Below are positions 6,508 to 46,450 of a stretch of DNA of 46,450 bases, piece by piece. This DNA is from Paludibacteraceae bacterium (GTDB lineage: Bacteria; Bacteroidota; Bacteroidia; Bacteroidales; Paludibacteraceae). The first letter of the stretch is position 1. The number at the start of each line of letters is the position of its first letter. Under the pieces are notes generated by a model. It was not told the DNA's origin. It saw only the letters and a list, made by a program, of their open reading frames with translations, and made no database searches. Both the position numbers and the translations under genes were made by a program. The stretch lies in NCBI GenBank assembly GCA_024399755.1, contig JAKSNN010000001.1:1-46450 (forward strand), given 5' to 3'.

Positions 6508-6539
6508 CAAAGGTACTACAAATTTTCCGAATGTGCAAA
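6508..6539 (-). promoter_or_regulatory. Bacteroidota-type promoter for the SGNH esterase
   Basis: Minus strand reads TTGCACATTCGGAAAATTTGTAGTACCTTTG, identical over 31 nt to the sites at 24734-24764 and 25056-25086. Confidence 0.7.
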
Positions 6540-6663
6540 AAAAAGCGCACGGAAGCGCCTTTTTTGCCGGACGATGTACAATTGAAAATGTCAATTAGTC
6601 CGCTGGTGCTAATGTCAAAAGTATAATCGCACAATGTATAATGTACGATTTGTGATTTGTAAG

Positions 6664-6723
6664 GGTACGGTGAGGGTTCGGTCTGGGTTCGGTGCGGTAC
6701 GGTAGTGGTACGGGGAAGGGTTC
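6664..6723. repeat. 5-6 phased (10-11-bp) copies of GGT(A/T)CGG
   Basis: Motif starts at 6664, 6675, 6686, 6696 and 6707, with a partial copy at 6718. On the minus strand it reads CCG(T/A)ACC. Confidence 0.8.
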
Positions 6724-23636: not shown

Positions 23637-24680
23637 TCAGTAATAGAGATAGCCAGCAGCACGAAGTTCTTTGATATTACGAAACGGATGTGCAGGGTGC
23701 AGATAACGGGCGAGATACGTATATACCTCCAAACGCAGTTCTCCACTCTCGGGATTATCAATCAATTGGAACTGGTGTGACCCGGGCATCCATGGATAGA
23801 TGGTATATTCAAAATCTTTCTTCTCACGTTTAAGCGCTTCAATCATACGATTTACTTCCGTCCAACTCACGTCATTATCGTTGACACAGGTGGCGATTTT
23901 AAGCGGTTTGCGCAAGAGTTGTGCGTAATTGACGGGAGAACGGCGGGCATACTCTTCCGGGGCCTCGGCAGGAGTGGCTCCTACGTGGTACGACGGGGTA
24001 AAATTGTCGGCATAATCGGGAGTCAGGTAACTCAAACGATATGCGACATCACTAACGGGAACTCCCGCGAAAGCGCAAGCGTAACTATCCGGATAACGGA
24101 GGATATTCATCAGCGAAATCATACCTCCGTGACTCCAGCCGATGATACCTACACGAGCGGAATCCACGATGCTGTAATTATCGACCATGTAGTTACGAAC
24201 GGCAAGAACATCTTCGTTCTCGAGTCCTCCGTAGTCGATGGCTTCGTAATATCCTTGTCCGTAACCGATGGAACCGCGATATTCCGGCATTGTAACGATA
24301 TAGCCTTGCGCTACCAACTCGCGGATAAGGTGCATCCAATATGTGCAAACATTACCATGTACCCCGCCATGAGGCATTACGATAAGCGGATATTTCTTGT
24401 TTTGCTTGAGATTTTTAGGAAAATAGATGTACGAGCGCACCACAAAAGGAAGGTTGCGGAGCGTGTCAAGAAAGGCACAACCTACCTCCGGCGGCAAAAC
24501 ATGTAAAGGCTGACTGGTGATATTGACAATGTCAATGTCGGCATGTCTGCTCAGATAATCGAACATAAGGATTTCCTCATGTTGCCGGTTGAGAACCAAG
24601 TAGTCGTGTTGGTCGTTCTCCTGCGCCGAAAGCGTTAGGACGGAAGCCAATAATCCGATAAAAAATACAATCTTACGCAT
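23637..24680 (-). CDS. Secreted alpha/beta hydrolase, S9 (prolyl oligopeptidase/DLH-like) catalytic domain only
   Basis: 347 aa with signal peptide ...TLSAQ. Shows the nucleophile elbow GWSHGG, then a candidate Asp (VNDNDVS) and His (PGSHQF) in S9 order. No beta-propeller is present. Confidence 0.8.
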   Translation of the reverse strand: MRKIVFFIGLLASVLTLSAQENDQHDYLVLNRQHEEILMFDYLSRHADIDIVNITSQPLHVLPPEVGCAFLDTLRNLPFVVRSYIYFPKNLKQNKKYPLIVMPHGGVHGNVCTYWMHLIRELVAQGYIVTMPEYRGSIGYGQGYYEAIDYGGLENEDVLAVRNYMVDNYSIVDSARVGIIGWSHGGMISLMNILRYPDSYACAFAGVPVSDVAYRLSYLTPDYADNFTPSYHVGATPAEAPEEYARRSPVNYAQLLRKPLKIATCVNDNDVSWTEVNRMIEALKREKKDFEYTIYPWMPGSHQFQLIDNPESGELRLEVYTYLARYLHPAHPFRNIKELRAAGYLYY

Positions 24681-24713
24681 AATTAATTATGAATTATGAA
24701 TTTTGAATTCATG
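24681..24713. repeat. About 4 x 7-bp tandem repeat (AATTATG-like) in the S9 hydrolase 5' leader
   Basis: AATTATG at 24685 and 24692, AATTTTG at 24699 and AATTCATG at 24706, directly abutting the start codon at 24680. Confidence 0.8.
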
Positions 24714-24733
24714 AGTTGAAGCCAATTCGGGCA

Positions 24734-24764
24734 CAAAGGTACTACAAATTTTCCGAATGTGCAA
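24734..24764 (-). promoter_or_regulatory. Bacteroidota-type promoter for the S9 hydrolase
   Basis: Minus strand reads TTGCACATTCGGAAAATTTGTAGTACCTTTG (the 31-mer that is identical at three sites). Confidence 0.7.
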
Positions 24765-24806
24765 GATTTTTTCATTTTTCATAAAAATGATGCGCTGTAA
24801 GCGGCT

Positions 24807-24914
24807 AATGATGCAAAAAGACATATCGAAAAAGTATCGGCAAAGTATCGGTCAAGTATCGGAGTGCTCCGTTAGTGCTCCGTTAATGCTCCGTTAGTGC
24901 TCCGTTAGTTGGTT
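24807..24914 (-). promoter_or_regulatory. Upstream repeat module, copy A (4 x AACGGAGCAyT + 3 x CCGATACTTnn, read on the minus strand)
   Basis: 11-bp units at 24863-24906 (4 copies) and 24830-24862 (3 copies). The reverse complement matches 40203-40285 at 81/83 positions by hand alignment. The module end lies 65 nt upstream of the -7 box. Confidence 0.75.
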
Positions 24915-25055
24915 GCTGTTTTTATAGTTAAGAATGGCTGACGCCTTGCCAATTGCAAAGCGCTCATCGGCTTATGTGAACAAGTTCCCAACGCCAAGCG
25001 TTCCTTGCCATTGAGATGAAATCATCTATCTCGCCCACAAAAATTCCCTTTCCGC

Positions 25056-25086
25056 TTGCACATTCGGAAAATTTGTAGTACCTTTG
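25056..25086 (+). promoter_or_regulatory. Bacteroidota-type promoter for dxs
   Basis: TTGCACATTCGGAAAATTTGTAGTACCTTTG, about 100 nt upstream of the dxs ATG. Confidence 0.7.
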
Positions 25087-25186
25087 CAAAAGTTTTGATT
25101 AACTTATGTTAAACTGACCCGATTACAAAGGAAAGACTTCACAGAGGAAGGTATATGCTACCGGAAATAAAGAGAAAAAGGAAATA

Positions 25187-27094
25187 ATGGAATATCAATA
25201 TATAGAACATATCAATTCAACAGCCGATTTGAAGCAACTGCCCGTGGAGGCATTACCTCACGTATGTGCTGAATTGCGTGACTTTATCATACAAGAATTA
25301 AGCCACAATCCCGGTCACCTCGGTTCGTCGTTAGGGGCAATAGAAATAACCGTAGCCCTTCATTACGTCTTTGATACTCCTTACGACCAAATCGTTTGGG
25401 ACGTGGGACACCAAGCCTACGCCCATAAAATCCTTACAGGTAGGCGTGAGCAATTCCATACCAATAGACAATTCAAGGGATTGGCTCCGTTCCCGACACC
25501 CAAAGAGAGCGAATATGACGCTTTCATAGCAGGACATGCAAGTAATAGCCTTTCGGCAGCCTTGGGGCTGGAAGTGGCAGGAGAAAAATTGGCGGAGGAA
25601 AAGGAGAGTGAGGGGGAAAGAAGAAAAGTGCCGCAAGTGGTTGCCGTGATAGGCGATGGCGCTATGACAGGTGGGTTGGCTTTTGAGGGACTGAATAATA
25701 CCTCCATGGACAAGAACAACCTGCTTATCATTCTCAACGACAACAACATGGCAATCGACCCGATTCGTGGCGGTTTTACACAGTATTTGGTAGATCTGAC
25801 GACGAGCAGTTGCTATAACAAGTGGCGTTGGCGGATCTATCAGGCATGCGTGAAACTGCACTTGATAGACGAACGGAAAAAGGATAAAGTGCTGCGCTTC
25901 CACAATAACCTGAAGACGCTTCTTACTCATCAGAAACAAAATATCTTCCAAGGGCTGAACATTCGCTATTTCGGTCCTGCCGATGGGCATGATGTAGAAG
26001 ATCTGGTTCGGATTTTGCGGGAAATAAAGAACCATCGCGGTCCGAAGGTGCTCCATATCATCACGAAGAAAGGTAAAGGATATGAGCCTGCGGAGAATAA
26101 TCAGACGGTTTGGCATGCCCCGGGAGAGTTTAATCCCGTGAACGGCGAGCGCAAAAAGTCGGGCGCAAGTCTGACACCCCTTTGGCAAGAGGTGTTCGGC
26201 GAGACGTTGCTGGAAATGGCCCGCAAGAACAAGAAGATAGTAGGCATAACACCTGCTATGCCAAGCGGTTGCTCCATGAATATCATGCAGAAAGAGTTGC
26301 CCGACAGGGTGTTTGACGTCGGTATAGCGGAAGGACATGCCGTTACGTTCAGCGCAGGTCTGGCAAAGGGCGGTTTGCTGCCGTATTGCAATATCTATTC
26401 GAGCTTCATGCAACGCGCATACGACAATATCATTCATGATGTGGCTTTATTGGGATTGCATGTAGTATTTTGTATTGATAGAGCCGGTATCGTCGGGAAT
26501 GACGGCGCTACGCACCACGGTTTGCTGGATATGGCGTATCTGCGTCCTATCCCGAACATGACTATTGCGGCTCCGATGACGGCGGACGACCTGAAGGCTA
26601 TGATGCGTTTGGCAGAGACGATAGACGGTCCGATAGCCATTCGTTATCCGCGAGGGCGGACACCTCTCTACGAAGAAGAAACGAAACCTATGGAAATAGG
26701 TAAGGGCGTTTGCCTGAAAGACGACGGAGATGAGGTGGCAGTATTGTCGATAGGCGCAATAGGAATGGCGGCTAAAGGTGCGATTGAGCGTGTGCAGAAG
26801 GAAACCGGCAGGGCAATCGGACACTACGATATGCGCTGGCTGAAGCCGATAGATACGGCGCTAATAGATGAGGTGGCAGGTAAATACAAGACGATTGTAA
26901 CCATAGAAGATGGCGTGATAAGCGGCGGACTCGGTTCTGCCGTGCTGGAATATATGGCGGACAAGGGATATACCAATCGTGTCGTACGGTTAGGCATAAA
27001 AGATACCTTCGTAGAACATGGTTCTACCGCCGAACTCTACCACATGTTAGGTTTGGACGAAGAAGGGATATATCGAGTGATTTGTAATTTGTAA
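25187..27094 (+). CDS. dxs: 1-deoxy-D-xylulose-5-phosphate synthase
   Basis: 635 aa with [27 protein letters not shown] and the ThDP motif GDGAMTGG. Confidence 0.95.
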
Positions 27095-27127
27095 TTTGTG
27101 ATTTGTGATTTTTGATTTGTAATTGAT
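27079..27127. repeat. 7 x 7-bp tandem repeat (G/A)ATTTGT spanning the dxs stop to the trkA start
   Basis: Units start at 27079, 27086, 27093, 27100, 27107, 27114 and 27121. The last 5 dxs codons (VICNL*) are encoded by the repeat, and the repeat ends at the trkA ATG (27128). Confidence 0.9.
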
Positions 27128-34440: not shown

Positions 34441-35316
34441 ATGGATTCAAAATCTTTGCAAAAACTGATTGCCGTTTGGTTTGACGAGGATATTCGTGAG
34501 GGTGATCATACTTCGTTGTGTTGTATTCCTGCTGATGCGATGGGTTGTCAGCAGTTGATTATCAAGGATACGGGTATCTTGGCTGGCGTAGAGGTGGCTA
34601 AGGAGATTATCCGCTATTTCGACCCTGAATGCCGGTTTGAGCAGTTGTTGGAGGACGGTGCTGCGGTCAAGCCGGGTGACATTGCTTTTCGCGTGTATGG
34701 TAAGCAACTCAGTTTGTTGCAGATTGAGCGCACGATGCTGAATATCATGCAGCGAATGTCGGGTGTGGCTACTACCGCCCACCGCTATCAAAGCCTGATT
34801 GCCGATACGGCTTGCCATGTGCTGGATACCCGTAAGACGACGCCCGGACTGCGTTATTTGGAGAAGGAAGCCGTCAAGATTGGCGGAGGAATGAACCACC
34901 GTATTGGGCTTTTCGATATGATTCTGCTGAAGGATAACCACGTGGACTTTGCAGGCGGTATAACGGCTGCGCTCACTCGTGCACGCGAGTATTGCAAGGC
35001 AAAGCAGAAAGACCTGCGCATTGAGATTGAGACGCGCAATGAGGACGAGATTCGCGAGGCGATAGCCACGGGCATTCCTAATCGTATCATGTTGGATAAT
35101 TTCACGCCGGAGCAGACCCGCCATGCAGTAGCGTTGATTCGTAGTCTTACTACTGCAAACCCTGCGGACGAACATTATATCGAGATTGAGTCGAGTGGAG
35201 GTATCACGAAGGACACGCTGCGCGACTATGCGTTGGCTGGTGTAGATTTTGTTTCCGTAGGGGCATTGACTCATTCCGTCAAGAGTCTGGATATGAGTTT
35301 CAAAGCCGTCAAATAG
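34441..35316 (+). CDS. nadC: Nicotinate-nucleotide pyrophosphorylase (carboxylating)
   Basis: Motifs EDIREGDHTS, LDTRKTTPGLR and DNHV. The ATG at 34441 is preferred because the ORF-track start at 34336 precedes the promoter. Confidence 0.9.
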   Translation: MDSKSLQKLIAVWFDEDIREGDHTSLCCIPADAMGCQQLIIKDTGILAGVEVAKEIIRYFDPECRFEQLLEDGAAVKPGDIAFRVYGKQLSLLQIERTMLNIMQRMSGVATTAHRYQSLIADTACHVLDTRKTTPGLRYLEKEAVKIGGGMNHRIGLFDMILLKDNHVDFAGGITAALTRAREYCKAKQKDLRIEIETRNEDEIREAIATGIPNRIMLDNFTPEQTRHAVALIRSLTTANPADEHYIEIESSGGITKDTLRDYALAGVDFVSVGALTHSVKSLDMSFKAVK

Positions 35317-35329
35317 CCTGCATACAATC

Positions 35330-36133
35330 ATGATGAAGCGTATTTTTCTATGGTTGTGTATTGCCGTCAGTCTTCCTGTAAGCGCTACGGACACGTTGCG
35401 CATATTGGCAATAGGTAATAGTTTTTCGCGTGACGCGATTGAGTATCATTTGTCGGATATTGCTAAGGCAGAGGGTGTGCATATCGTTTTAGGAAACTTG
35501 CACATTGGCGGCTGCACGTTGGAGCGCCATGCCCTGAATGCTCGTACCGACAGTGCGGCTTACGAGTATATCAAGATTGTGGACGGAGTGCTTACTAACA
35601 CGCCCAAGACGCGTATGAGTACGGCTTTGGCGGACGAGCCATGGGATTATGTTAGTTTCCAGCAAGCCAGCAATTTCAGCGGAATGTACGACACTTACGA
35701 GCCTTATTTCAAGGAACTGACAGGCATTGTTTTAGGTCGTCTTCCGAAAGCCAAACCGATGTGGCAAATGACGTGGGCGTATGCTCAAAATACCACGCAC
35801 GCCGCTTTCCCTTACTATGGCAGTAGCCAAGACAAGATGTATCAGGCGATATTGCGCACCTGCAAGACGCTGCATAAGCATTATCCGCGTTTCACGATTA
35901 TCCCGACGGGTATTGCCATACAGAATGCCCGCACTCGATTGGGTGATGTAATGAACCGCGACGGCTTTCATCTGAATTACGTATATGGCAGATATACAGC
36001 GGCTTGCACGTGGTGGCAGACCATTACGAAACGCGATATCCGTACCAACACGTATCGTCCAGATGGAATTACGGACGAGCAGTATGAGGCATGTCGTTGG
36101 GCGGCACGCCGGGCAGTCAAAAAGCAAAGATGA
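35330..36133 (+). CDS. Secreted SGNH-like protein (DUF4886-like)
   Basis: 267 aa with a signal peptide, an N-terminal block ILAIGNSFSRD and a late DGFHLN (D-x-x-H-like). Confidence 0.6.
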   Translation: MMKRIFLWLCIAVSLPVSATDTLRILAIGNSFSRDAIEYHLSDIAKAEGVHIVLGNLHIGGCTLERHALNARTDSAAYEYIKIVDGVLTNTPKTRMSTALADEPWDYVSFQQASNFSGMYDTYEPYFKELTGIVLGRLPKAKPMWQMTWAYAQNTTHAAFPYYGSSQDKMYQAILRTCKTLHKHYPRFTIIPTGIAIQNARTRLGDVMNRDGFHLNYVYGRYTAACTWWQTITKRDIRTNTYRPDGITDEQYEACRWAARRAVKKQR

Positions 36134-36864
36134 GTAATCCGATTATGAAGGCATTACCTACGATTGTCTGTTTGCTTCTGCTATTACCTTTGACGGCATG
36201 CCACAAGGGGGATAAATCGCAAGAGAACGGGGTCGAGAGTCATTCGACATTCGTTCGAGGGTCAAATGACTCTCATTCTGCCAAGAAAGAACCCCGTTTG
36301 GTATATTATCCGGGGCGAACCATCAGGTATTCCGATAAGTTCCGTGATAAGAACGACTTGCATCTCGCAGCAGCAGCCTCAATAGGGCTGAAGCATGGAC
36401 CCAAAGACCGTGCAGATGCCAAAAAGATGAAAAAAGACCTCCGCGAAATCAAGACGAATAAGAATTATGTGGTGGACGAACTGACGCATTCTGTGCCTTA
36501 TCTTGTGCCAAAGGCGGCTGCGGAATTAGATACGATTGGTGTGGGGTTCGCGGATATATTGAAGCGCAACGACTTGCCGCATTATCGTTTCCGTGTTACC
36601 AGTGTTTTGCGCACGCAGGACGATATCCGCCGTTTGCAGCGGAGTGGTAATGTCAATTCTGTCAGCAACTCTGCCCATTGTTATGGTACTACTTTCGACA
36701 TTGCCTACCTGCACTACGATAAGGTAACCGATACGTTAGATTCCGTGCCGGAAGACAATCTCAAACTCGTTTTGGGGCAGGTCTTGCTCAACGAGCAGCG
36801 CAAGGGGCGTATCTACGTGAAATACGAGTGGAAGCAATGCTGTTTCCACATCACGTGCCGCTAA
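36130..36864 (+). CDS. Lipoprotein with a LAS/M15 (VanY-like) metallopeptidase signature
   Basis: Lipobox LPLTAC. SAHCYGTTFDI fits SxHxxGxxxD of VanX/VanY-type enzymes, and there is a C-terminal EW....FH. The start overlaps the previous stop (ATGA). Confidence 0.5.
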   Translation: MSNPIMKALPTIVCLLLLLPLTACHKGDKSQENGVESHSTFVRGSNDSHSAKKEPRLVYYPGRTIRYSDKFRDKNDLHLAAAASIGLKHGPKDRADAKKMKKDLREIKTNKNYVVDELTHSVPYLVPKAAAELDTIGVGFADILKRNDLPHYRFRVTSVLRTQDDIRRLQRSGNVNSVSNSAHCYGTTFDIAYLHYDKVTDTLDSVPEDNLKLVLGQVLLNEQRKGRIYVKYEWKQCCFHITCR

Positions 36865-36897
36865 ATAGCGTCTAACGGGTAGTTAATAGAAGTCTCT

Positions 36898-39207
36898 TTA
36901 AATCTTCTCTAATTTGGCAAAGGTGAGCAGTAGTGTCTTATTGCCTACCTTGTCGAAACGAATCTCAATCTTGTCGTTGCCGTTGCTCTCGTCGTGCCAC
37001 ACGCGTAATATGGTTCCTTCGCCAAATACTTTATGCCTAACGCGCTCATTTGCTGCGAATTGCGAATCTGTAGGCATCTCTGTTGAAGCGTTTCTAACGG
37101 GATTGGCTTTGGCTTGTTCGGCTTGGATATGCGATTGTGTGAGGGTGTCGAGAGGTGTGAAACGGGGCATGCGGGGAGGCGCAGCAAAACCCCATTGTTG
37201 AGAGGGTGCGGAGCGGAAACTCGGCTGCGAAGAAGCCTCGTATTGCTTGATATATTGGCGGTCGAGGTCGTTCAGGAAACGCGACGGGGAGGAGAAATCC
37301 AAACTGCCGTTCTTGAATCTGGACTTCGCAAAACTGATGTAGCAACGTACCATGGCGCGTGTGATGGCGACATAGAGCAGACGTCGTTCTTCCTCAATCT
37401 CTGTGGGACGAACGCAATACTGCGAGGGAAACAGGTTCTCTTCCATGCCTGCGATGAAAACGCTCTCAAATTCCAGTCCTTTGGCTGCATGTACGGTCAT
37501 TAGTGTAACGCGCTCGGTATGGTCTTCCGTGTGCTCGTCTTGGTCGGTCAGCAGCGATACCTCGGATAGAAAATCCGTAATCGGCGTGAAACTGACGCCC
37601 TCTTGCATTCTGCCATCTACAAACTCGTGTATGGCGGATAACAGTTCGTCAAGGTTCTCTTTTCGGTCGATGCCTTCTTGCGATTGGTCAAGGAAGGCTG
37701 CGGTCATGATGCCGGATTCCCTCAGTACGCGTTCTGCAAATTCGTAGGCGTCGGTTGTGTCGATAGCCTCTTGGAAATGTTGTATGATAGTCGCAAAATT
37801 GCGCAGTTTGGTGAGGGTGGAAGCGTTTACGGTGAGGGCATTCTCATCAGGTTGGTTGATTACTTCCATCATGCTTATGCCGTGGGTGGTAGCGCATTCC
37901 GATACTTTCTTGAGTGTCGTGTCGCCGATGCCGCGTGCAGGGAAATTGATGACGCGCATCAGGGCTTCCGTATCTTTCGGGTTGGCTGCCAAGCGGAAAT
38001 ACGAGATAGCGTCTTTGATTTCTTTGCGTTGATAGAAACTGGTGCCGCCGTAGATGCGGTAGGGGATATTTCGGCTCCGCAGTTCGTTTTCCAATACGCG
38101 CGATTGGGCATTGGTGCGGTAGAGTACGGCAATCTCGTTGTAGCCGGTCTTGCGCAGGCGGTGTTCCTCGCTGATGAGTGAGGCTATGCCTTCTGCCTCG
38201 GCTCTGTCGGAGGCGTAGGCGCGAAGCGAAAGGGTATCGCCCACCTCTTTCTCGGAATATACGTCTTTGTGAATCTGGTTTTCGTTGTGGCGGATTAGCG
38301 AATTGGCTGCATTCACAATCGTTTGTGTTGAGCGGTAGTTGCGCTCCAGTTTGAATAGTCGGGCGTTGTGGTACTCGCGTTGGAAATGCAGGATATTGCG
38401 TATGTCTGCTCCGCGGAACGAATAGATAGATTGTGCATCGTCGCCCACTACGCAGATATGGTTTTGCGGCTCGGCAAGGCGTTTCACGAGACAATACTGC
38501 ACGTAGTTGGTGTCCTGGTACTCATCTACGAGTACGTATTGGAAGAGGTCTTGGTAGTAGGCAGCCGCTTCTGCGTTGTCTCTAAGTAGCCGGCAGGTAT
38601 TCAGTAGCAGGTCGTCAAAATCCATCGCATTGGCTGCCTGCAACCGTAGTTCGTAGCGTCGATATACTTCCGCCATGTCGTACATTCTGTCGAATCGGTC
38701 ACGTTTTTGCAGGTCGTTGTTGGCGGCGTAGTCGGAGGGTGACATAAAGGCGTTTTTGGCTGCGGAAATTTTTGAGAGCACGTTGCCGAGTTTGTATATC
38801 TTTTCGTCCAGTTGCATCTCTTTCAGTATCTGTTTGGCAGCGGCTTTCGAATCGGAAGTGTCGTAGATGGAGAAATCGCGTGTGAAGCCTAAATGTTCGG
38901 CTTCGTGGCGGAGGATACGGGCGCAGATGGAGTGAAAAGTGCCCATCCAGAGGTATCGGGCTGTTTCCTCACCGACGAGTTTGCCGATGCGTTCTTTCAT
39001 TTCGCGTGCGGCTTTGTTGGTAAAGGTGAGGGCGAGGATATGATTAGCGGGGATACCTTGTTGCAGAAGCCATGCAATCTTAAAGGTCAGTACGCGGGTT
39101 TTCCCCGAACCGGCACCGGCAATCACGAGTTGTGGACCGTCGTTGTAAGTGACGGCATCGCGTTGTGAGGGATTGAGAAGGTCTAATAAAGTAGGCATAG
39201 TCTGCAT
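36898..39207 (-). CDS. UvrD/PcrA-type ATP-dependent DNA helicase
   Basis: Walker A AGAGSGKTRVLT, motif II LVDEYQDTN and a C-terminal Tudor-like tail. The ORF-track start at 39222 is TTG inside the -7 box, so the ATG at 39207 (or 39198) is preferred. Confidence 0.9.
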   Translation of the reverse strand: MQTMPTLLDLLNPSQRDAVTYNDGPQLVIAGAGSGKTRVLTFKIAWLLQQGIPANHILALTFTNKAAREMKERIGKLVGEETARYLWMGTFHSICARILRHEAEHLGFTRDFSIYDTSDSKAAAKQILKEMQLDEKIYKLGNVLSKISAAKNAFMSPSDYAANNDLQKRDRFDRMYDMAEVYRRYELRLQAANAMDFDDLLLNTCRLLRDNAEAAAYYQDLFQYVLVDEYQDTNYVQYCLVKRLAEPQNHICVVGDDAQSIYSFRGADIRNILHFQREYHNARLFKLERNYRSTQTIVNAANSLIRHNENQIHKDVYSEKEVGDTLSLRAYASDRAEAEGIASLISEEHRLRKTGYNEIAVLYRTNAQSRVLENELRSRNIPYRIYGGTSFYQRKEIKDAISYFRLAANPKDTEALMRVINFPARGIGDTTLKKVSECATTHGISMMEVINQPDENALTVNASTLTKLRNFATIIQHFQEAIDTTDAYEFAERVLRESGIMTAAFLDQSQEGIDRKENLDELLSAIHEFVDGRMQEGVSFTPITDFLSEVSLLTDQDEHTEDHTERVTLMTVHAAKGLEFESVFIAGMEENLFPSQYCVRPTEIEEERRLLYVAITRAMVRCYISFAKSRFKNGSLDFSSPSRFLNDLDRQYIKQYEASSQPSFRSAPSQQWGFAAPPRMPRFTPLDTLTQSHIQAEQAKANPVRNASTEMPTDSQFAANERVRHKVFGEGTILRVWHDESNGNDKIEIRFDKVGNKTLLLTFAKLEKI

Positions 39208-39219
39208 AGATTCGGAGTG

Positions 39220-39251
39220 CAAAAGTACTGCTTTTTTCTCGAATATGCAAA
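39220..39251 (-). promoter_or_regulatory. Bacteroidota-type promoter for the helicase
   Basis: The plus strand has CAAAAGTA at 39220-39227 and CAAA at 39248-39251 with a 20-nt spacer. Confidence 0.65.
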
Positions 39252-39310
39252 TTACAACCCATAAATTACAAATTACAAATCACAAATTACAAATCAACAA
39301 CACAAATTAA
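39248..39310. repeat. About 9 x 7-bp tandem repeat CAAAT(T/C)A between divergent promoters
   Basis: Units begin at 39248 every 7 nt. It is the reverse-complement family of the 27079-27127 repeat. Confidence 0.85.
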
Positions 39311-39320
39311 ACATTTTCTC

Positions 39321-39351
39321 TTGTGCATTTGGAAAAATTGCTGTACCTTTG
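39321..39351 (+). promoter_or_regulatory. Bacteroidota-type promoter for the GT2 gene
   Basis: TTG (39321-39323), 20 nt, TACCTTTG (39344-39351). Confidence 0.65.
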
Positions 39352-39393
39352 TAGTCCAAATGGTGAGTGTCATTTCCAAAATATCAAACCAGC

Positions 39394-40212
39394 ATGCTTA
39401 ATGTCTCAATCGTCCTTTATCGTTCGGATATGGCGCAGGTGAATGCTCTGTGTCAGACGTTATTGCAGGCGGCTTCGGTGCGTTCTATTTACCTGATTGA
39501 CAATTCTCCGGTTGCGGCAACAGGCTTCCCTTCTGACTCGCGTGTGGTGTATCGTTGGAACGGGGGCAACAACCTCGGTTATGGCAGAGCCAATAATATC
39601 GCCATTCGTGAGAGTATCTACGATAAGGTGCCTTTTCATTTGGTTATCAATTCGGATATTGAGGTATCTGCGTCCGACTTGGATTATTTGCACGGATTTA
39701 TGCAGCATAACCCGAAGGTGGGCAGTTTGATGCCGCGGGTGGTAGGTGCGGATGGTCATTTGCAATATCTTTGCAAACTCTTGCCTACGCCGTGGGACGT
39801 GTTTGCCCGCCGTTTCTTGCCAAGAAGGTGGACGGAGCGTCGTAATGCGCATTATGAGTTACGGGCATCGGGGTATGATAAGATGATGAATGTGCCGTAT
39901 TTGAGCGGTTGTTTTATGTTGCTTCGTACGGAGGCTGTGTTGCAGGCGAGGTTGTTTGATGAGCGTTATTTCATGTATCCGGAGGATATTGACCTGACTC
40001 GCACGTTGCATCGTGACTGGTTGACGCTTTATGTGCCGGATGTGACGATAGTGCATCGTCATGCGCAAGCCTCGTATCATAGTTGTCGGATGCTTTGGGT
40101 ACATATAGTCAATATGTGCCGGTATTTCAATAAGTGGGGTTGGTTCTTTGATTCCGAGCGCACACTCATGAATCAACTCGCAAATTTACAGATAGAATAT
40201 CGAACCAACTAA
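39394..40212 (+). CDS. Family 2 glycosyltransferase (rhamnosyltransferase-like)
   Basis: MLNVSIVLYRSD..., IYLIDNSP and YPEDIDL. The ATG at 39394 is preferred over the GTG at 39367. The stop codon lies inside the first bases of repeat module B. Confidence 0.8.
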   Translation: MLNVSIVLYRSDMAQVNALCQTLLQAASVRSIYLIDNSPVAATGFPSDSRVVYRWNGGNNLGYGRANNIAIRESIYDKVPFHLVINSDIEVSASDLDYLHGFMQHNPKVGSLMPRVVGADGHLQYLCKLLPTPWDVFARRFLPRRWTERRNAHYELRASGYDKMMNVPYLSGCFMLLRTEAVLQARLFDERYFMYPEDIDLTRTLHRDWLTLYVPDVTIVHRHAQASYHSCRMLWVHIVNMCRYFNKWGWFFDSERTLMNQLANLQIEYRTN

Positions 40213-40329
40213 CGGAGCACTAACGGAGCACTAACGGAGCACCAACGGAGCACTCCGATACTTGACCGATACTTTGCCGATACTTGACTGACACTTTTTC
40301 GAAATGTTTTTTGCATCTTTTGCATCATT
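40203..40329 (+). promoter_or_regulatory. Upstream repeat module, copy B (4 x AACGGAGCAC(T/C) + 3 x CCGATACTTnn + TTGCATC motifs)
   Basis: 11-bp units at 40211-40254 and 40255-40287. It carries a 9-nt insertion (40286-40294) and a TTTTGCATC duplication relative to copy A. The module end lies 67 nt upstream of the -7 box. Confidence 0.75.
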
Positions 40330-40372
40330 TTGATTATATTTTTGCAAAAAAATGCTTAGAGTATCACAAATA

Positions 40373-40404
40373 TTTGCGTATATCAAATTTTTGTAGTACA
40401 TTTG
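40373..40404 (+). promoter_or_regulatory. Bacteroidota-type promoter for the lipoprotein cluster
   Basis: TTTG (40373-40376), 20 nt, TACATTTG (40397-40404). Confidence 0.6.
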
Positions 40405-40494
40405 CAGCGAAATTGGAGAATGTAGTGTTGTGGAAACCAAAAAATCCCCCCGGTTCTATAGTTCTCTGTTATTATAGATAATTTGTCAACGAAT

Positions 40495-40833
40495 AAAAAA
40501 CATTTATTTAATTATGAAAAAATTCTTTTTGGCACTGATGGCTGTAGCCGCCATCGCAATCGCAGGATGTAACAAGTCGATAAACGACCCGGAACCTCCA
40601 GAAAATAAGGAAGAAGTGCGAGGAATTTATCCCCCTTCTGAAGATTCTACGGTCGTTATAGTTAATGATGAAGTTCCTGATGACGGGAAGTAATCGTGCC
40701 CTTGTGGCTAAGAAATAACAAAGTTAAACAATAATCAAAAAAACATTTATTTAATTATGAAAAAATTCTTTTTGGCACTGATGGCTGTAGCCGCCATCGC
40801 AATCGCAGGATGTAACAAGTCGATAAACGACCC
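40495..40833 (+). repeat. Tandem duplication: identical 96-nt blocks at 40495-40590 and 40738-40833 (243-bp offset)
   Basis: Each block is 19 nt of leader plus 77 nt encoding MKKFFLALMAVAAIAIAGCNKSINDP. The sequences are unrelated after the block. Confidence 0.9.
40514..40693 (+). CDS. Small acidic Pro-rich lipoprotein (59 aa), copy 1
   Basis: Not in the ORF track (<60 aa). ATG 40514 to TAA 40691-40693: MKKFFLALMAVAAIAIAGCNKSINDPEPPENKEEVRGIYPPSEDSTVVIVNDEVPDDGK. Lipobox IAGC. Confidence 0.6.
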   Translation: MKKFFLALMAVAAIAIAGCNKSINDPEPPENKEEVRGIYPPSEDSTVVIVNDEVPDDGK

Positions 40834-40972
40834 TGTAGTAATTGACGACCTTGGAGCACCTGATAATATTATACCTCCTACGGATACCGATGGTGCAAAT
40901 CAGAATAGATGGGGTCTCGCTCCAGAGAGAATTCCTCTGCCAGTTACCTATACTGAAAACGACGAAGAATAA
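40757..40972 (+). CDS. Small acidic Pro-rich lipoprotein (71 aa), copy 2
   Basis: Same signal peptide and first 7 mature residues as copy 1, then the unrelated tail ...VVIDDLGAPDNIIPPTDTDGANQNRWGLAPERIPLPVTYTENDEE. Confidence 0.65.
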   Translation: MKKFFLALMAVAAIAIAGCNKSINDPVVIDDLGAPDNIIPPTDTDGANQNRWGLAPERIPLPVTYTENDEE

Positions 40973-40996
40973 TTTGCAAAAATTATGCGAAATAAC

Positions 40997-41022
40997 AAAA
41001 ATCGTCCTTCGGGGCGATTTTT
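40997..41022 (+). terminator. Rho-independent terminator/attenuator hairpin with a TTCG loop
   Basis: AAAAATCGTCC-TTCG-GGGCGATTTTT. The T-tract ends 11 nt before the next ATG (41034). Confidence 0.7.
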
Positions 41023-41033
41023 GTCTATTTGGT

Positions 41034-41981
41034 ATGAAGCGTGGGTGTTGGATATATCTGCTTTTCCTGTTCGTTGGAGTCAGTTGTGAGTCGCGAGTGA
41101 TTCCAATGCAACAAACTGCGACACGTCAGATTGTGATGTTTTCTGCCGTCAACGGACTGGGAGACCACGGCTATGTTGATTTGATTCTTTTTGGGGCGGA
41201 ACATGTCTATCTGAATTTGCCGAAGGATGTGCGTATGCTGTATTGCAACCCTACCACTTTTGAGGAAGCCGAACAGGCGGCGGATTACTATTCGCACGAA
41301 GGAGCAGCAGCATACGACAGCACGTTGATTGTTTTGGCAGGGTCGGATTATAAGCCCCTCGCAGAGAAATATATCCATGATTCCACGCTTAACCCAAATG
41401 TGGATATCCTTGTTTTTGAGGTGGACGAACTGCCGCAGGGCTATAACTCTGACCATGTAGCGGCGTTCTCCGTAGATATGTATTGGGGCAGTTACAATGC
41501 CGGTGTGAGTGTGGCTCAAATGGGTTTCCAAGCCCCGTTGATTTGGTTGGCTCGTGATGATGATTACATCTTGCAACTGGCTCGGGACGGCTTCTCTGAC
41601 GGCTATTATTCGATAACAAATGTGCACCCTGACACGGCGATGCTCAGTAACGACTGGCACGGCTACGGTATGCCCGACGTTACCTACCGGCAAATGGAGG
41701 AGAAAAGCAAGAAATATGATTTCATTTATCCCGTCATGGGCGGTTCTAATATGGGTATTTATCGCTATTTGCGTGAGCATTCGGATGGACCTAAAGTGGC
41801 AGGAATGGATGTGGATCAAAGCCAATATGCCTCTAATGTGATTGGCAGTTTGGTCAAACACATGGACCTGTTGGTAGAGAAGTATCTGAATAATTGGCTA
41901 AACCATATACCTTGGCAACGATATGAGAAAATCGAGGCGAATAGCGGTTATATTGAGTGGGTGCTTACTGGTGCTGAGTAG
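41034..41981 (+). CDS. BMP-family (PnrA/Med-like, type-1 binding fold) probable lipoprotein
   Basis: MKRGCWIYLLFLFVGVSC..., with the BMP-like motifs VNGLGDHGYVD and AGMDVDQSQ. The ATG at 41034 is preferred because the ORF-track N-terminus overlaps the small gene and the terminator. Confidence 0.6.
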   Translation: MKRGCWIYLLFLFVGVSCESRVIPMQQTATRQIVMFSAVNGLGDHGYVDLILFGAEHVYLNLPKDVRMLYCNPTTFEEAEQAADYYSHEGAAAYDSTLIVLAGSDYKPLAEKYIHDSTLNPNVDILVFEVDELPQGYNSDHVAAFSVDMYWGSYNAGVSVAQMGFQAPLIWLARDDDYILQLARDGFSDGYYSITNVHPDTAMLSNDWHGYGMPDVTYRQMEEKSKKYDFIYPVMGGSNMGIYRYLREHSDGPKVAGMDVDQSQYASNVIGSLVKHMDLLVEKYLNNWLNHIPWQRYEKIEANSGYIEWVLTGAE

Positions 41982-44046
41982 TTGGCTCCTGACATCATGC
42001 GAACGCGAGGAGCATTATTGTTCTGTTAGTGACCTCAGCGTGCGTAAGGTGGCTGTAGTCTTACCCTTTGAAAACGGTTTGCGTGAGCAATGGGAACAGT
42101 GCCTGAACCTCTGCAATGCCAATTTGCAGACGGCTTTTTGTTATGCCGGTATGGGGGTGAAATTGCAGTTTGAGTGGTATGACGAATCGACAGAGGACTT
42201 ATCTGCTTTAGGACAAAAACTCTTGGCGCGCAAGGATATAGTGGCTGTGATTGGAGGTCACCACTCGTCGTCAGCGATGCAGTTGGCATCGGTGTTGTGC
42301 AAAGGGGGAAAAAACCTTTTTACTTTGGGGACAGCCGGGCAATTGACGCGGGCATATTCGGCAACAGGCAATCTATGGGTAATGACCGAAACGGATGTTA
42401 CCGAGTGTGAGGTGCTGCTTAGTAAAGCCATACAATATGGAGCCAAATCAGTTGCATTGTTGGTCAACGGCGCAGATGTGTACGGTCAAACTTTCTTGGA
42501 CTGGTACGCGTTCCAAGCGACAGAGTTAGGACTGCAAAACAAGGGTACCTATTCCTATGACGGTAGTGAGGCACAGATTGCGCAGCAGACCAAAGCGGCT
42601 TTAGCGTCTGGCGCAGACTTTGTGTTGTGTGCTTCCAGTTCGGTGGAGGAACTGAAAACGGTGCTGAGTACGAAGCAATCCACACTGCATAACAACCGTA
42701 TGCTAATGGCAGAATCGGGGTTTGCGGGTAATGCTATCAGCGAGTTAGGTTCGTTGATGGAGGGTGTTGAGGGAGTGTGTTATGGTGCCGATCCTGAATC
42801 GGGATTTGATATAGCCTATCAGGCACGGTTCAATCGTTTGCCCTGCTTGGGCGAAGCGCAAGTATATGATGCAGCCATGCTGATTGCCTTTGCTTCGTAT
42901 GTGCAGATGCTCAATGAAGACCTCACATTCAAAAATGCCATGCGTCAATTGGTAGATGGTCGCGAACAGGGCAAGAGCAGTTGGCGGAGCGAAGACATGG
43001 TTTGGCTTGCGTCTATGCTGGCGAAAGGTGCGCATCCGGATATTAGTGGCGCTTCCGGTTCGTTGGACTTTGACGCAAGGGCTTATACCAACGTTCTGCA
43101 CTCGGTCTATTATAACTACTTGGTCTATCAACAAAAGTACATCTTTTTGGACTACAATACCACGGACGGCTCACGCCGAACCGACCCTACATTGGCATCA
43201 TGGAACTGGAAAAAGTCGCAAAAGCAGGATATCTCGTATGAGGGAGAGGAGCGTGTCTATCCTCCTTTGGATAAACGTTGGGCGTTGCTGGTAGCAGCCT
43301 CAAAGGGGTGGGAAAATTATCGCCATCAGGTAGATGTGCTTAATATCTACCAGATTCTCAAGAAACACGGTTATGACGATGACCATATCGTTGTTATCAT
43401 GGAGGATGACTTGGCGAAGAATGCGAATAATCCTGAACAGGGTGTTTTGTACTCGCGAATGGATGGCGTTAATGTCTATCAGAATGTGCAGGTGGATTAT
43501 CACCCCTCCCAATTGACCCCAAAAGATATTCCTGAGATTCTGTTAGGACATGCTTCGGAACGTTTACCGCATGTGTTGCGTTCGGATTCGGATGATAATG
43601 TATTCTTTTTCTGGTCGGGTCATGGTTCACCGGGTAAGATGTGCTGGCTCGATACATGGGAGGGAATTAAAAAAGACGATTTGGAAAAATGCCTCGCTAA
43701 ATTAGAGCAATCGGGGAATTACCGCAAACTGATTGGTTGCTTCGAGACATGCTATTCCGGCGGAGTAGCGGAAGCGGCAGATAACCATAATGGCATGCTG
43801 TTCTTCACGGCAGCCAATGCCAATGAGACATCTAAAGCGGACGAGTATAATTACAACTGGGATGTATGGATGAGTAATCGTTTTACCGCCACCTTGCAGG
43901 ACTGTATGATCAATTCCCCTACGCAGACGTTTGGCGAACTGTATAACCAATTATTTCTATCTACTGTTGCCTCGCACGTGTGTGTATTTGGTCATAAGGG
44001 GTTTGGCAGCCTGTACGAATCTAATCTGGGAGAAATTCTTAAATAG
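41923..44046 (+). CDS. Lipoprotein fusion: type-1 periplasmic binding domain + peptidase C13 (legumain-like)
   Basis: Signal/lipobox ...WLLTSC. The N-terminal half is LivK/ANF-receptor-like (VAVVLPFENG, IVAVIGGHHSSSAMQ). The C-terminal half has GWENYRHQ, a catalytic-type His in WSGHGSPG (43621-43623) and a Cys in FETCYSGG (43750-43752). Confidence 0.8.
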   Translation: MRKSRRIAVILSGCLLVLSSWLLTSCEREEHYCSVSDLSVRKVAVVLPFENGLREQWEQCLNLCNANLQTAFCYAGMGVKLQFEWYDESTEDLSALGQKLLARKDIVAVIGGHHSSSAMQLASVLCKGGKNLFTLGTAGQLTRAYSATGNLWVMTETDVTECEVLLSKAIQYGAKSVALLVNGADVYGQTFLDWYAFQATELGLQNKGTYSYDGSEAQIAQQTKAALASGADFVLCASSSVEELKTVLSTKQSTLHNNRMLMAESGFAGNAISELGSLMEGVEGVCYGADPESGFDIAYQARFNRLPCLGEAQVYDAAMLIAFASYVQMLNEDLTFKNAMRQLVDGREQGKSSWRSEDMVWLASMLAKGAHPDISGASGSLDFDARAYTNVLHSVYYNYLVYQQKYIFLDYNTTDGSRRTDPTLASWNWKKSQKQDISYEGEERVYPPLDKRWALLVAASKGWENYRHQVDVLNIYQILKKHGYDDDHIVVIMEDDLAKNANNPEQGVLYSRMDGVNVYQNVQVDYHPSQLTPKDIPEILLGHASERLPHVLRSDSDDNVFFFWSGHGSPGKMCWLDTWEGIKKDDLEKCLAKLEQSGNYRKLIGCFETCYSGGVAEAADNHNGMLFFTAANANETSKADEYNYNWDVWMSNRFTATLQDCMINSPTQTFGELYNQLFLSTVASHVCVFGHKGFGSLYESNLGEILK

Positions 44047-44090
44047 TTTCGATGCAAGTTCCATACACCATTAGAAAGGTGATATACAAG

Positions 44091-45107
44091 ATGACAAAGT
44101 TTCGATATATGTTTCTGTGCGCGATTCTTTTGCATGGATTCTTGTCCTGCGACCGGGACGACGATCCGACAAGACGTATTGCCGAAACCGGTGACGCTAC
44201 AGACATTACGGCATTTACCGCTAAAATTTCCGGTTATTGCAATCAAAAGAATGTTGCAGGACTATCTGTAACCTATGGAATAGAATATACCAATACAGAT
44301 CTTACAAGAAACGCTATCGTTCTGAATGCCTCTGAAATGGACGAGAAGGGTCGTTTTTCGGTTGATATTGAAAATCTGAATCCGGGAACAGAATATTTCT
44401 ACCGTACATTTGTCTTTTACAACAGGGCTTATTCATTCGGAAATGTGGAGAGTTTTACGACATTGGCGCATCCTGAGCCGGAAAAGGTGGACTTGGGTGT
44501 GGGCGTCAAGTGGGCTTCGTTCAACATAAGTGCACCTGCTCCTGCTGATTATGGGAAATATTACTCATGGGGAGAGATTAGAACCAAGTCCTTCTATGCA
44601 TGGGAGTCCTACCTGTGGAGTGCAGACGGAACGGAATCCAACATAACAAAATACAATTCTGCGGATAACAAAAACCGCCTTACCTCGGACGATGATGTTG
44701 CTACACACGAACTTGGCGGTTCATGGCGTATGCCTACCGCTAAAGAGTTTGATAAACTGGTTGCCGGTTGTTATTGGCAATGGTTTGAGAACTACAAAAA
44801 TTCAGGGATAAAAGGCTACGTGGTATTTAAGGCAAAAAATGATGGAGACCGGGGAAAAAGGAACTCTGAAACTATTTCTGCATCTTATTCGCCGGACAAG
44901 GATGTCCACATCTTCCTTCCGGCTGCCGGATATGCTTCAAAAGATGTATTTAGTGATATTGGAAGCAACGGCAATTATTGGACATCATCTCTTTCCCCTT
45001 CGACATCAAGCAGCGCTTATTACATCTATTTTGATTCCGAAAACATAGGGGTAGGTGAGTGCGAGAAACGCTATTATGGACAGTCCGTCCGTCCTGTCTC
45101 TGATTGA
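44091..45107 (+). CDS. Lipoprotein: Fn3-like domain + FISUMP/DUF1566-like domain, paralogue 1
   Basis: Lipobox HGFLSC followed by DRDDD. Fn3-like NLNPGTEYFYRTFV, then GVKWASFNI...YYSWGE...WRMPTAKEF...FLPAAGY...GQSVRPVSD. The ATG at 44091 is preferred. Confidence 0.7.
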   Translation: MTKFRYMFLCAILLHGFLSCDRDDDPTRRIAETGDATDITAFTAKISGYCNQKNVAGLSVTYGIEYTNTDLTRNAIVLNASEMDEKGRFSVDIENLNPGTEYFYRTFVFYNRAYSFGNVESFTTLAHPEPEKVDLGVGVKWASFNISAPAPADYGKYYSWGEIRTKSFYAWESYLWSADGTESNITKYNSADNKNRLTSDDDVATHELGGSWRMPTAKEFDKLVAGCYWQWFENYKNSGIKGYVVFKAKNDGDRGKRNSETISASYSPDKDVHIFLPAAGYASKDVFSDIGSNGNYWTSSLSPSTSSSAYYIYFDSENIGVGECEKRYYGQSVRPVSD

Positions 45108-45131
45108 CAAATCGAAAAACCATCAATCAAT

Positions 45132-46226
45132 ATGAAAAAAGTTATTTTATTAATGTGTCTTGTTGTCACGTTGGTTTCGTGTGAAAAATCCGATTTAGGA
45201 AACTCTGACATTGCCGAAACAGGTGTAGTCGTAGAGTTGGGCGCTTTTTCTGCCAAAATCCAAGGTGTTTGCCGACAAAAGCCGGAGAAGGCTTTGTCTG
45301 TCATCTATGGCATTGAATATTCTGAGAACGATCTCAACACCAATGCGACCGACGTTGAGGCAACACAAATAAGTGCTGATGGCAAATTTGACGTTTGCAT
45401 TGATGGACTGACGGCAAATACGTCATACTACTATCGTGCTTATGTGTTATTCAACAAAGTCTATTATTTCGGTGATATCAAGACTTTTGTCACGTCTTCA
45501 CACCCGCAGCCGGAAAAGGTGGATTTAGGTGTGGGCGTCAAATGGGCGTCATGCAACATAAGTGCCTCTTCACCGGAGGAAGTTGGAAAATATTATGCGT
45601 GGGGTGAGACTAAGCCCAAATCGTTTTATAGTTGGGGTACATACGTTTGGTGTAAAGATGGACAGGAACTGCAACTGACGAAATATGTTCCTGCTTCTGC
45701 TCCGGAATACTGGTTTGGCGATGGTCCCGTTGACAACAAACTCGTGCTTGATCCTGAAGATGATGTCGCCCGTAAGGAACTCGGCGATTCGTGGCGTATG
45801 CCTACTATTGAAGAATTTGGCGATTTGGTATCGGAATGTTTCTGGCAATGGTGTACCGACTACAAAGGTTCCGGCGTCCGTGGATATATTGTTTTCAAGG
45901 CAAAGACTCCTGAGGATAGGGGGAAGAGACAATCTCCGGAATATACGGAAGATATAGTGACGGGGGACTATTCCGTAGATAATGATGTCCACATCTTTCT
46001 TCCCGCTGCTGGGTTCCGTTGGGACGATGTTACGATGGGGGACAAAGGAGATGTGGTTTTGGGGTACTACAGATCGTCTTCTCTTCAGGCAGTAGGTATT
46101 CCCAATTATGCCAATGGTACTCCCAATTATGCAGTTGATATGTGTTTCAGTGTCTTCTATACAGATACTGCCGATTATTACGAGCGTTGTTTCGCAATGC
46201 CCATTCGGGCTGTAGCGGATTATTGA
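45132..46226 (+). CDS. Lipoprotein: Fn3-like domain + FISUMP/DUF1566-like domain, paralogue 2
   Basis: Lipobox TLVSC followed by EKSD. Same architecture as paralogue 1, with a divergent and longer C-terminal third. Confidence 0.7.
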   Translation: MKKVILLMCLVVTLVSCEKSDLGNSDIAETGVVVELGAFSAKIQGVCRQKPEKALSVIYGIEYSENDLNTNATDVEATQISADGKFDVCIDGLTANTSYYYRAYVLFNKVYYFGDIKTFVTSSHPQPEKVDLGVGVKWASCNISASSPEEVGKYYAWGETKPKSFYSWGTYVWCKDGQELQLTKYVPASAPEYWFGDGPVDNKLVLDPEDDVARKELGDSWRMPTIEEFGDLVSECFWQWCTDYKGSGVRGYIVFKAKTPEDRGKRQSPEYTEDIVTGDYSVDNDVHIFLPAAGFRWDDVTMGDKGDVVLGYYRSSSLQAVGIPNYANGTPNYAVDMCFSVFYTDTADYYERCFAMPIRAVADY

Positions 46227-46267
46227 TGTGTGCCACTTCGAACCCTCATAGTCCCCTCATAGATTTT

Positions 46268-46302
46268 AATCACCAATCACAAATAACAAATCACAAATCA
46301 AA
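46268..46302. repeat. 5 x 7-bp tandem repeat AATCACA-like
   Basis: Units at 46268, 46275, 46282, 46289 and 46296, the same family as 39248-39310. Confidence 0.85.
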
Positions 46303-46324
46303 AAAGCGCTTTCGGGCGCTTTTC
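46301..46324 (+). terminator. Rho-independent terminator closing the lipoprotein cluster
   Basis: AAAAAGCGCT-TTCG-GGCGCTTTT. Confidence 0.75.
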
Positions 46325-46325
46325 C

Positions 46326-46356
46326 TTGTATATATCCGAAATTTTTAGTACCTTTG
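46326..46356 (+). promoter_or_regulatory. Bacteroidota-type promoter for a gene beyond the window
   Basis: TTG (46326-46328), 20 nt, TACCTTTG (46349-46356). Confidence 0.55.
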
Positions 46357-46450
46357 CAGCCGGAAGTCGAAGTATCTTCGTGCAAGTCCGTTGTGACTTA
46401 ATTTCTGGCATATTTGTCAAAGGTGTTCCAAAGGTGAAGATAAGGTGATG

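Follow-up and report, generated by a model that had tools for sequence, protein, structure and literature searches.

BrickBuilt of Porphyromonas gingivalis is a minisatellite-containing MITE (a miniature transposable element with inverted repeats) composed of a leader, 23-nt repeats and a tail; it is intergenic, has promoter activity, carries small terminal inverted repeats (TIRs), reaches up to 991 nt and has 19 documented copies (Klein et al. 2015, PMC4596501). It is the nearest described example of the element reported here, a non-coding module of abutting 11-bp repeat arrays. The module is present in two inverted copies, copy A at 24914-24807 on the minus strand and copy B at 40203-40329 on the plus strand, in a 46,450-nt stretch of Paludibacteraceae bacterium DNA (GenBank assembly GCA_024399755.1, contig JAKSNN010000001.1, positions 1 to 46,450; hereafter the window). 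Both elements belong to Bacteroidales, are intergenic and non-coding, consist of a leader, spacerless direct repeats and a tail, vary in repeat number between copies and strains, often lie beside genes for peptidases or secreted proteins and are associated with promoters. The module differs from BrickBuilt in its two or three abutting 11-nt arrays, in the absence of TIRs and target-site duplications (TSDs), in its length of 108-127 nt and in the three contexts seen, and the two have no sequence similarity.

Mobile promoters, or promoter reuse, have been described in prokaryotes (Nijveen, Matus-Garcia and van Passel 2012, PMC3575422). The module resembles them as a near-identical upstream sequence of non-homologous genes in one genome with no obvious transposase. 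However, the part that is shared lies upstream of the promoter and excludes the -33/-7 core.

In tandem pho boxes and other operator arrays of the OmpR/PhoB family, two to six direct repeat units follow one another every 11 bp on one face of the DNA, each with a conserved core and a variable linker; the pho boxes are degenerate, reach into or border on the -35 region and are retained upstream of orthologous genes. The module shares the period, the single face and the conserved core with variable linker, but its repeats are perfect, far upstream, species-specific and polymorphic in copy number, and no regulator is linked to it. REP/REPIN, ERIC and Correia elements are palindromic or TIR-bearing and form hairpins. 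Like the module they are short, non-coding and dispersed, lie at gene boundaries, can donate stop codons or promoter elements and can be substrates for recombination, whereas the module consists of direct repeats whose plus strand shows no significant folding (z = -0.5). In the invertible promoters and shufflons of Bacteroidales, inverted repeats of ~20-30 bp surround a promoter- or gene-sized segment and a recombinase is encoded nearby; the likeness to the module lies in the inverted short repeat and in the surface or secreted genes, the difference in the 15.3 kb of housekeeping genes between the copies and the lack of an adjacent recombinase.

We find that the module has been copied, is polymorphic in whole units, is restricted to one species, lies upstream of at least three unrelated promoters and stands at a break in synteny. 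The promoters are those of an S9-family hydrolase gene, of a lipoprotein/legumain cluster and, in a second strain, of a cluster that starts with a 501-amino-acid lipoprotein; across these three contexts the module is 96-98% identical. The explanation we favour, with about even confidence, is a species-specific dispersed repeat bearing minisatellites, propagated by recombination and situated upstream of promoters, where it may have a secondary role as an upstream element.

Structure of the module and its two copies

Each copy consists of the leader AACCAACT, four AACGGAGCACY units (array 1), three to four CCGATACTTNN units (array 2) and a tail that ends in TTTGCATCATT, and measures 108 nt in copy A and 127 nt in copy B. 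Both were delimited by direct reading, Tandem Repeats Finder (TRF), an inverted-repeat search and alignment of the copies. In copy A (24807-24914, minus strand), the leader at 24914-24907 is followed by array 1 at 24906-24863, with four AACGGAGCAYT units (AACGGAGCACT and then units ending in CATT, CACT and CACT), by array 2 at 24862-24830, with three CCGATACTTnn units (CCGATACTTGA and then units ending in TTTG and TTTT), and by the tail TCGATATGTCTTTTTGCATCATT at 24829-24807. Copy B (plus strand) has an identical leader at 40203-40210, four array 1 units of the AACGGAGCAC(T/C) type at 40211-40254, the third with a CACC end, an array 2 of three units and a degenerate fourth, CTGACACTTTT, at 40255-40298, and the tail TCGAAATGTTTTTTGCATCTTTTGCATCATT at 40299-40329.

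A first-pass annotation of the same DNA had described four tandem units of the first kind and three of the second, which direct reading and TRF confirm. TRF placed 11-bp arrays at 24863-24909, 24831-24862, 40208-40254 and 40255-40296, with a period of 11 and 4.3 and 2.9-3.8 units at both loci. Two-unit patterns of array 1 or array 2 each matched the window six times, compared with 0.00 and 0.02 matches expected from shuffled sequences. Isolated AACGGAGCAC units did not occur in the window outside the modules (~2.8 expected).

The annotation had also taken the reverse complement of 24807-24914 to be the same module. In a repeat search of the window, the arms 24832-24914 and 40203-40285 indeed formed an 83-nt inverted repeat with 98% complementarity. 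Homology between the copies extends over ~127 nt, from AACCAACT to GCATCATT, and the flanks are unrelated. Since this holds for the upstream flanks of both copies, AACCAACT is a sharp outer boundary, as had been proposed; beyond GCATCATT the copies are no longer alike until the generic promoter. Across three loci, all 11 array 1 units have the same core, AACGGAGCA, and three of them vary, at positions 10-11 only. Array 2 keeps the core CCGATACTT and varies in a 2-nt linker, a core/linker pattern behind which there are few independent events. Judged from the alignment, copies that are 98% identical over two arrays as well as a non-repeat leader and tail cannot have arisen independently, and the near-identity of the non-repeat parts argues for copying rather than for maintenance of sites.

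The module has the traits of a MITE in that its copies are near-identical, short, non-coding and intergenic with unrelated flanks, and that of BrickBuilt in its minisatellite of variable repeat number between leader and tail. However, no inverted repeat joins the ends of copy A or of copy B, and no TSD was found in the flanks of copy A (..AACAGC / AGCCGC..) or copy B (..ATATCG / TTGATT..), so a classical MITE was rejected. Because TIRs and target duplications are lacking, the module would have spread or been exchanged through gene conversion or homologous recombination and not through transposition. Its arrays would lengthen and shorten by replication slippage, and the 60-130 bp of shared arrays could serve as a substrate for rearrangement.

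Further candidates were tried and discarded. The window contains no Rfam family at gathering thresholds. The minus strand folds with z = -2.8, which is owed only to the junction palindrome CGGAGCACTCCG, and the plus strand is unstructured; an RNA element was therefore rejected. Iterons of a replication origin were dismissed in view of the chromosomal housekeeping context, the absence of rep or par genes and the lack of a plasmid or phage match. No transposase, rep or par gene is present among the window genes.

Strain variation, distribution and proposed mode of spread

Two independent European Nucleotide Archive (ENA) contigs from sample ERZ1767555, L116 and L232, belong to the same species (~98% identity) and carry the module at both loci, L116 as copy A and L232 as the left part of copy B. 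A fault of a single assembly is thus excluded as the source of the module. Copy A of L116 has 11 nt (a fourth array 2 unit) and 9 nt (a second TTTGCATCA) more than copy A of the window, with no substitution within the module compared with nine in ~450 nt of flanks. Aligned with copy B of the window over ~127 nt, it shows five mismatches and one indel. Because both extra units are present in L116, the distal difference between the window copies amounts to two unit-sized indels, one of an 11-nt unit and one of a 9-nt TTTGCATC(A/T) unit. The annotation had been right about the existence of this difference but not about its nature, which it had given as a 9-nt insertion and a 9-nt duplication.

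L232 is 98.0% identical to window positions 34651-40282 over 5.6 kb, and this synteny ends at 40282/40283, within copy B, in the third of its array 2 units. Its module reads AACCAACT, three AACGGAGCAC(C/T) units, CCGATACTTGA CCGATACTTTA CCGATAT and then GTTA GTGGTATATTA GTGGTATATTA GCGAG; array 1 thus has three units, and a third 11-bp array consists of 2.5 units of GTGGTATATTA. Past this array lie a different promoter and genes for four exported proteins (501, 310, 498 and 655 amino acids), none of which has a counterpart in the window. As homology between the strains ends inside the shared arrays, the module copy marks a junction of rearrangement or replacement. Whether by rearrangement or by a chimeric join, this third combination of module, promoter and genes in the species shows that arrays are combined modularly. 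Across copies and strains each array has three to four units, whole units are gained or lost, and the tail is optional.

The exported-protein clusters 3' of the glycosyltransferase gene that precedes copy B are wholly different in the two strains (L232 5633-12573, window 40283-46450). The locus may encode surface proteins that vary from strain to strain, or one of the assemblies may be chimeric at the repeat.

That the module as a whole is an assembly artefact, or that slippage produced it in situ at each locus with no common origin, seems to us barely credible. The window is probably derived from a metagenome-assembled genome (MAG), and the second assembly does not corroborate the right-hand junction of copy B. 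Nevertheless, the independent ENA contigs contain copy A as well as copy B's left part, so that the existence of the module is no artefact, and the identity of 98% that spans two arrays, leader and tail speaks against independent slippage.

The arrays could also be arm-type or subterminal repeats of a recombinase that bound surface-gene cassettes, as in a shufflon or an integrative element. The copies in the window are inverted and flank 15.3 kb, the synteny break of L232 lies in array 2 with another secreted-protein cassette beyond it, and DNA inversion is widespread in the surface variation of Bacteroidales. We nevertheless consider such site-specific recombination quite improbable. The interval between the copies contains housekeeping genes (dxs, trkA, trkH, coaE, rlmH, nadC, uvrD and others), the sole recombinase gene in the window (XerC/D-like, 2170-3081) is 22 kb away, no core-type inverted repeat accompanies the arrays and, since each cassette has its own promoter, an exchange would not switch expression. 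A mobile island or invertible segment between the inverted copies was rejected because of the housekeeping genes in its interior, and an invertible promoter or shufflon because of the 15.3 kb of such genes between the arms and the non-adjacent recombinase.

In relatives of the window species the module is absent both at the orthologous S9 loci (L117 and L118, 74-75% amino acid identity), where the neighbouring genes differ too, and at the orthologous glycosyltransferase loci (L233 and L234, 74-75%), where a hairpin and a convergent rpsT gene lie 3' of the gene. The C-terminus of the glycosyltransferase is variable and four amino acids longer in the window species than in the closest relatives, which is compatible with replacement of the native gene end by the module. 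In the relatives of the 501-amino-acid cluster (L236 and L237), the contigs stop ~100 nt upstream of the promoter, and there is no module in that span. The 20-mer AACGGAGCACTCCGATACTT from the module junction had no match in the JGI metagenomes, and a BLAST search of the module against plasmid and phage collections found no match. Because the orthologous loci lack the module and these searches gave no match, the module is young and lineage-restricted. For the scan of the genome collection with ACGGAGCANNAACGGAGCA, ~70 chance matches were estimated (17 specified bases, ~596 Gb, both strands), and this pattern was set aside as too unspecific.

Several points weigh against a repeat spread by recombination. 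The evidence comes from the two window copies and a single variant context from a second strain, and the synteny break in L232 could have arisen by chimeric assembly across the repeat instead of marking a difference between strains. The mechanism of propagation is a putative one. Moreover, the constant orientation and helical phase, the invariant 9-bp cores and the exported products fit selected cis-regulation no less well than a passive repeat. As a dispersed repeat and nothing more, the module would be a useful marker of genome plasticity, would cause mis-assembly of Bacteroidales MAGs and would extend BrickBuilt-like minisatellite elements to a composite 11-bp form without TIRs.

Promoters, helical phase and possible regulation

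The promoter of the S9 gene lies at 24734-24773 (minus strand), with its -7 box TACCTTTG at 24741-24734, and the promoter 3' of copy B at 40374-40404 (plus strand), where TTTGCG..N..TACATTTG places the -7 box TACATTTG at 40397-40404. The distances of 65 nt (copy A) and 67 nt (copy B) from GCATCATT to TAnnTTTG, the -7 box of Bacteroidetes, had been given correctly in the annotation. The -33/-7 core is outside the shared module. The annotation had also noted that both copies point toward a promoter, and the third context, L232, keeps this orientation; in all three, the nearby promoter is of the Bacteroidetes type.

The distance from the junction of arrays 1 and 2 to the -7 box is 120 nt in copy A of the window, 140 nt in copy A of L116, 141 nt in copy B of the window and 109 nt in copy B of L232. 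At 10.5 bp per turn these distances correspond to 11.43, 13.33, 13.43 and 10.38 turns, and thus to one face within ~1 bp. We roughly estimate the probability of this coincidence at p ~0.04-0.08, based on two or three independent comparisons. The end of array 2 lies 77-109 nt and that of array 1 109-141 nt upstream of the -7 box. An 11-bp period that sets all sites on one DNA face, as had been proposed, is consistent with the period of 11 obtained by TRF and with the common phase of the four instances. Decayed 11-bp arrays were considered as a trivial cause of the shared phase and discarded, as no lag-11 autocorrelation was seen in the spacers between arrays and promoters.

Because every copy faces the -7 box in the same direction and from the same side of the helix, the module, if active at all, would probably act as an upstream platform for a DNA-binding protein that occupies one face and modulates the adjacent promoter. 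A stronger version, which we regard as possible though rather unlikely, is that of a cis-regulatory operator array. Arrays 1 and 2 would then be tandem sites for one or two regulators bound head-to-tail on one helix face, promoters of secreted proteins would be co-regulated and copying of the module would recruit new promoters to the regulon. With its 11-bp period and three to four units the module resembles tandem pho boxes, its orientation is constant in three contexts, the four junction distances fall in one phase, and the corresponding distances of two analogues in another genome (JAZLHD01, described below) are exactly 11 nt apart. The array 1 units of three loci, 11 in number, do not vary in their 9-bp cores, and all downstream products carry signal peptides. 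On the other hand, the module has no linked regulator, the -7 box is 77-190 nt downstream of the arrays, and the perfect repeats with their near-identical leader and tail indicate recent copying. Orthologues in relatives lack the module, neither single nor degenerate sites occur at other promoters in the 46 kb, the number of units varies, and the phase statistic comes from two or three independent comparisons only. The first-pass proposal of a cis-regulatory element therefore survives in part. The module is repeated, promoter-oriented, phased and followed by genes for exported products, but its copying, unit polymorphism and position at a synteny break, and the mixed orientation of such arrays elsewhere, count against the proposal. 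On sequence evidence a cis-regulatory role is possible.

The annotation had named a candidate binder of the OmpR/PhoB type, the product of an orphan gene at 6820-7494 (minus strand), which would co-regulate both loci. This gene does encode an RprY-like response regulator of the OmpR family with Response_reg and Trans_reg_C domains, and regulators of this family typically recognize direct repeats of a 10-11 bp period. We nevertheless judge its binding to the arrays very unlikely. A distance of 17 kb separates the gene from the module, no link between them was detected, the gene product, for which RprY is the best match, scores below the NCBIfam equivalog cut-offs (226 compared with 370 bits for RprY and 161 compared with 270 bits for the Bacteroidetes PhoB), and two different arrays would demand two specificities. 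In addition, the arrays are not promoter-proximal and the orthologues lack the module, and as Bacteroidales genomes would be expected to encode many such regulators, the prior for any one of them is low.

If the phase is functional, secreted hydrolases and lipoproteins of Bacteroidales would be subject to an unstudied form of control from upstream of their promoters, and promoters would gain this control through module copying. A still broader generalization, to which we give little credence, is that phased modular 11-bp arrays are a general, possibly undescribed upstream architecture of promoters in Paludibacteraceae or Bacteroidales. Interchangeable arrays of the AACGGAGCA, CCGATACTT, GTGGTATATTA and other types would then serve both as address labels for one-face binders and as portable homology for swapping cassettes of promoters and secreted proteins.

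The genes downstream of the two copies are of the kinds named in the annotation. Copy A lies between two divergent genes, dxs (25187-27094, plus strand) and the gene for a secreted S9-family alpha/beta hydrolase with a signal peptide (23637-24680, minus strand), which it precedes. Copy B begins at the stop codon of a gene for a GT2-like glycosyltransferase (39394-40212, plus strand), the TAA of which, at 40210-40212, is within AACCAACTAA of the module. It precedes a cluster at 40514-46226 (plus strand) that starts with two open reading frames (ORFs) for small lipoproteins of 59 and 71 amino acids (40514-40693 and 40757-40972). The cluster further encodes a Bmp-like protein, a 707-amino-acid lipoprotein in which Peripla_BP_6 is fused to a legumain-type Peptidase_C13 domain (41923-44046) and two paralogous Lcl_C-like lipoproteins (44052-45107 and 45132-46226), all on the plus strand. 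No NCBIfam match was found for the 707-amino-acid fusion; this exact protein and the exact S9 hydrolase are also recorded in assembly GCA_024500545.1. The two small lipoprotein ORFs share a 96-nt perfect direct repeat (40495-40590 and 40738-40833), which covers the ribosome-binding region, signal peptide and lipobox, and are entirely different past it. The window is assigned to Bacteroidales by its promoter motifs and protein names, and homologues of its GT2-like glycosyltransferase carry the name Paludibacteraceae.

Separately from the module, a 32-33-nt promoter sequence, TTGCACATTCGGAAAATTTGTAGTACCTTTGCA, is 100% identical at 24734-24765, 25055-25088 and 6506-6538, where it precedes the unrelated S9, dxs and GDSL esterase genes. 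Diverged copies are found at other promoters (4405-4446, 2078-2119 and 39218-39259), and the Logan contigs L001 and L109 break at this sequence. Its recurrence looks like promoter reuse in its own right.

Analogous arrays and other repeats

Elements with the same architecture occur elsewhere, and we treat them as analogues, not homologues, of the module. The unit AACGGAGCACT is also found in arrays of three in the Paludibacteraceae MAG JAZLHD01, among the matches listed, but within a different dispersed element that has a conserved leader and the trailer CATAGCCTA..GGGATTTACAAGGA.TTACCAAAAC. Three of the four JAZLHD01 copies among these matches are upstream of a co-oriented gene and the fourth is between convergent genes. 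In two of these elements the array lies 97 and 108 nt from the -7 box, a difference of exactly 11 nt.

Three ACGGAGCA units at an 11-bp period were found at 111 metagenome loci, more than 40 of them from one sample. The high-copy families among these have a conserved leader, three to seven units and a ~110-nt trailer, and are nearly always intergenic with mixed orientation to the neighbouring ORFs. One metagenome (contigs Ga0209629_* and Ga0209628_*, L120-L229) holds more than 40 copies of a family with the leader GAAAATAACAAAATGTCAAGCGG..GTACGGCGTATGT, three to seven ACGGAGCAAGT units and a ~110-nt trailer, and a second family in which two ATCGAACGAAG units abut the same ACGGAGCAAGT array. 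A conserved binding protein was considered as the cause of the recurrent ACGGAGCA arrays and set aside, as chance sampling of many random 11-bp arrays would suffice by a rough estimate (22/4^8 per array x ~10^5-10^6 arrays). Recurrence of the same 8-11-mer in unrelated arrays would thus be compatible with chance.

In the low-GC loci examined (769 kb plus the window, with the searched motif excluded), the commonest tandem-repeat period was 11, with 35 repeats compared with 12, 20 and 7 at periods 10, 12 and 13, in a sample biased by the choice of loci that contain an 11-bp array. Further peaks were at 7, 14, 21 and 22 bp, and high-GC loci peaked at the coding periods 12, 15 and 18. These counts suggest a preference for the 11-bp period in intergenic DNA of Bacteroidales.

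The window itself holds more such arrays, so that 11-bp intergenic arrays are not unique to the module. At 6650-6715 (minus strand), in the interval from the response-regulator terminator to the GDSL esterase promoter, five CCGTACCnnnn / CCGAACCnnnn units are followed by CAAATCA heptads. At 113-146, downstream of pckA, AACATGTGTAT is repeated three times.

A human gut locus (L196 6780-7300; the same locus in L124, L200 and L224) has a ~450-nt imperfect palindrome in a divergent promoter region, with outer 11-bp arrays CATATTGCCAA / TTGGCAATATG and inner nnATCTCCGT (seven units) / ACGGAGnnnnn (five units). CCGATAC clusters in IMG/VR phages (L112 and L115), obtained in a viral scan with CCGATACTTnnCCGATACTT, were judged to be an unrelated protein-binding region, the pattern itself forcing an 11-bp array. 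There, intergenic CCGATAC / GTATCGG sites in both orientations lie beside a small terminase gene (L115 11260-11680, L112 ~3000-3400) and include a four-unit 11-bp array of two TCCGATACTTC and two TCCGACACTTC units. This may be a terminase or pac recognition region.

Heptad arrays (CAAATYA / TGATTTG, AATTATG and AACTCTT) occur in the window at 27080-27124, 39248-39309, 46268-46304, 24685-24714 and 2005-2057, at gene boundaries and in the 5' leader of the S9 gene, and resemble the 7-bp arrays of other Bacteroidales loci. Finally, the window contains a tandem pair of paralogous deoxynucleoside kinase genes (3109-3759 and 3762-4409), which are 70% identical over 211 nt.

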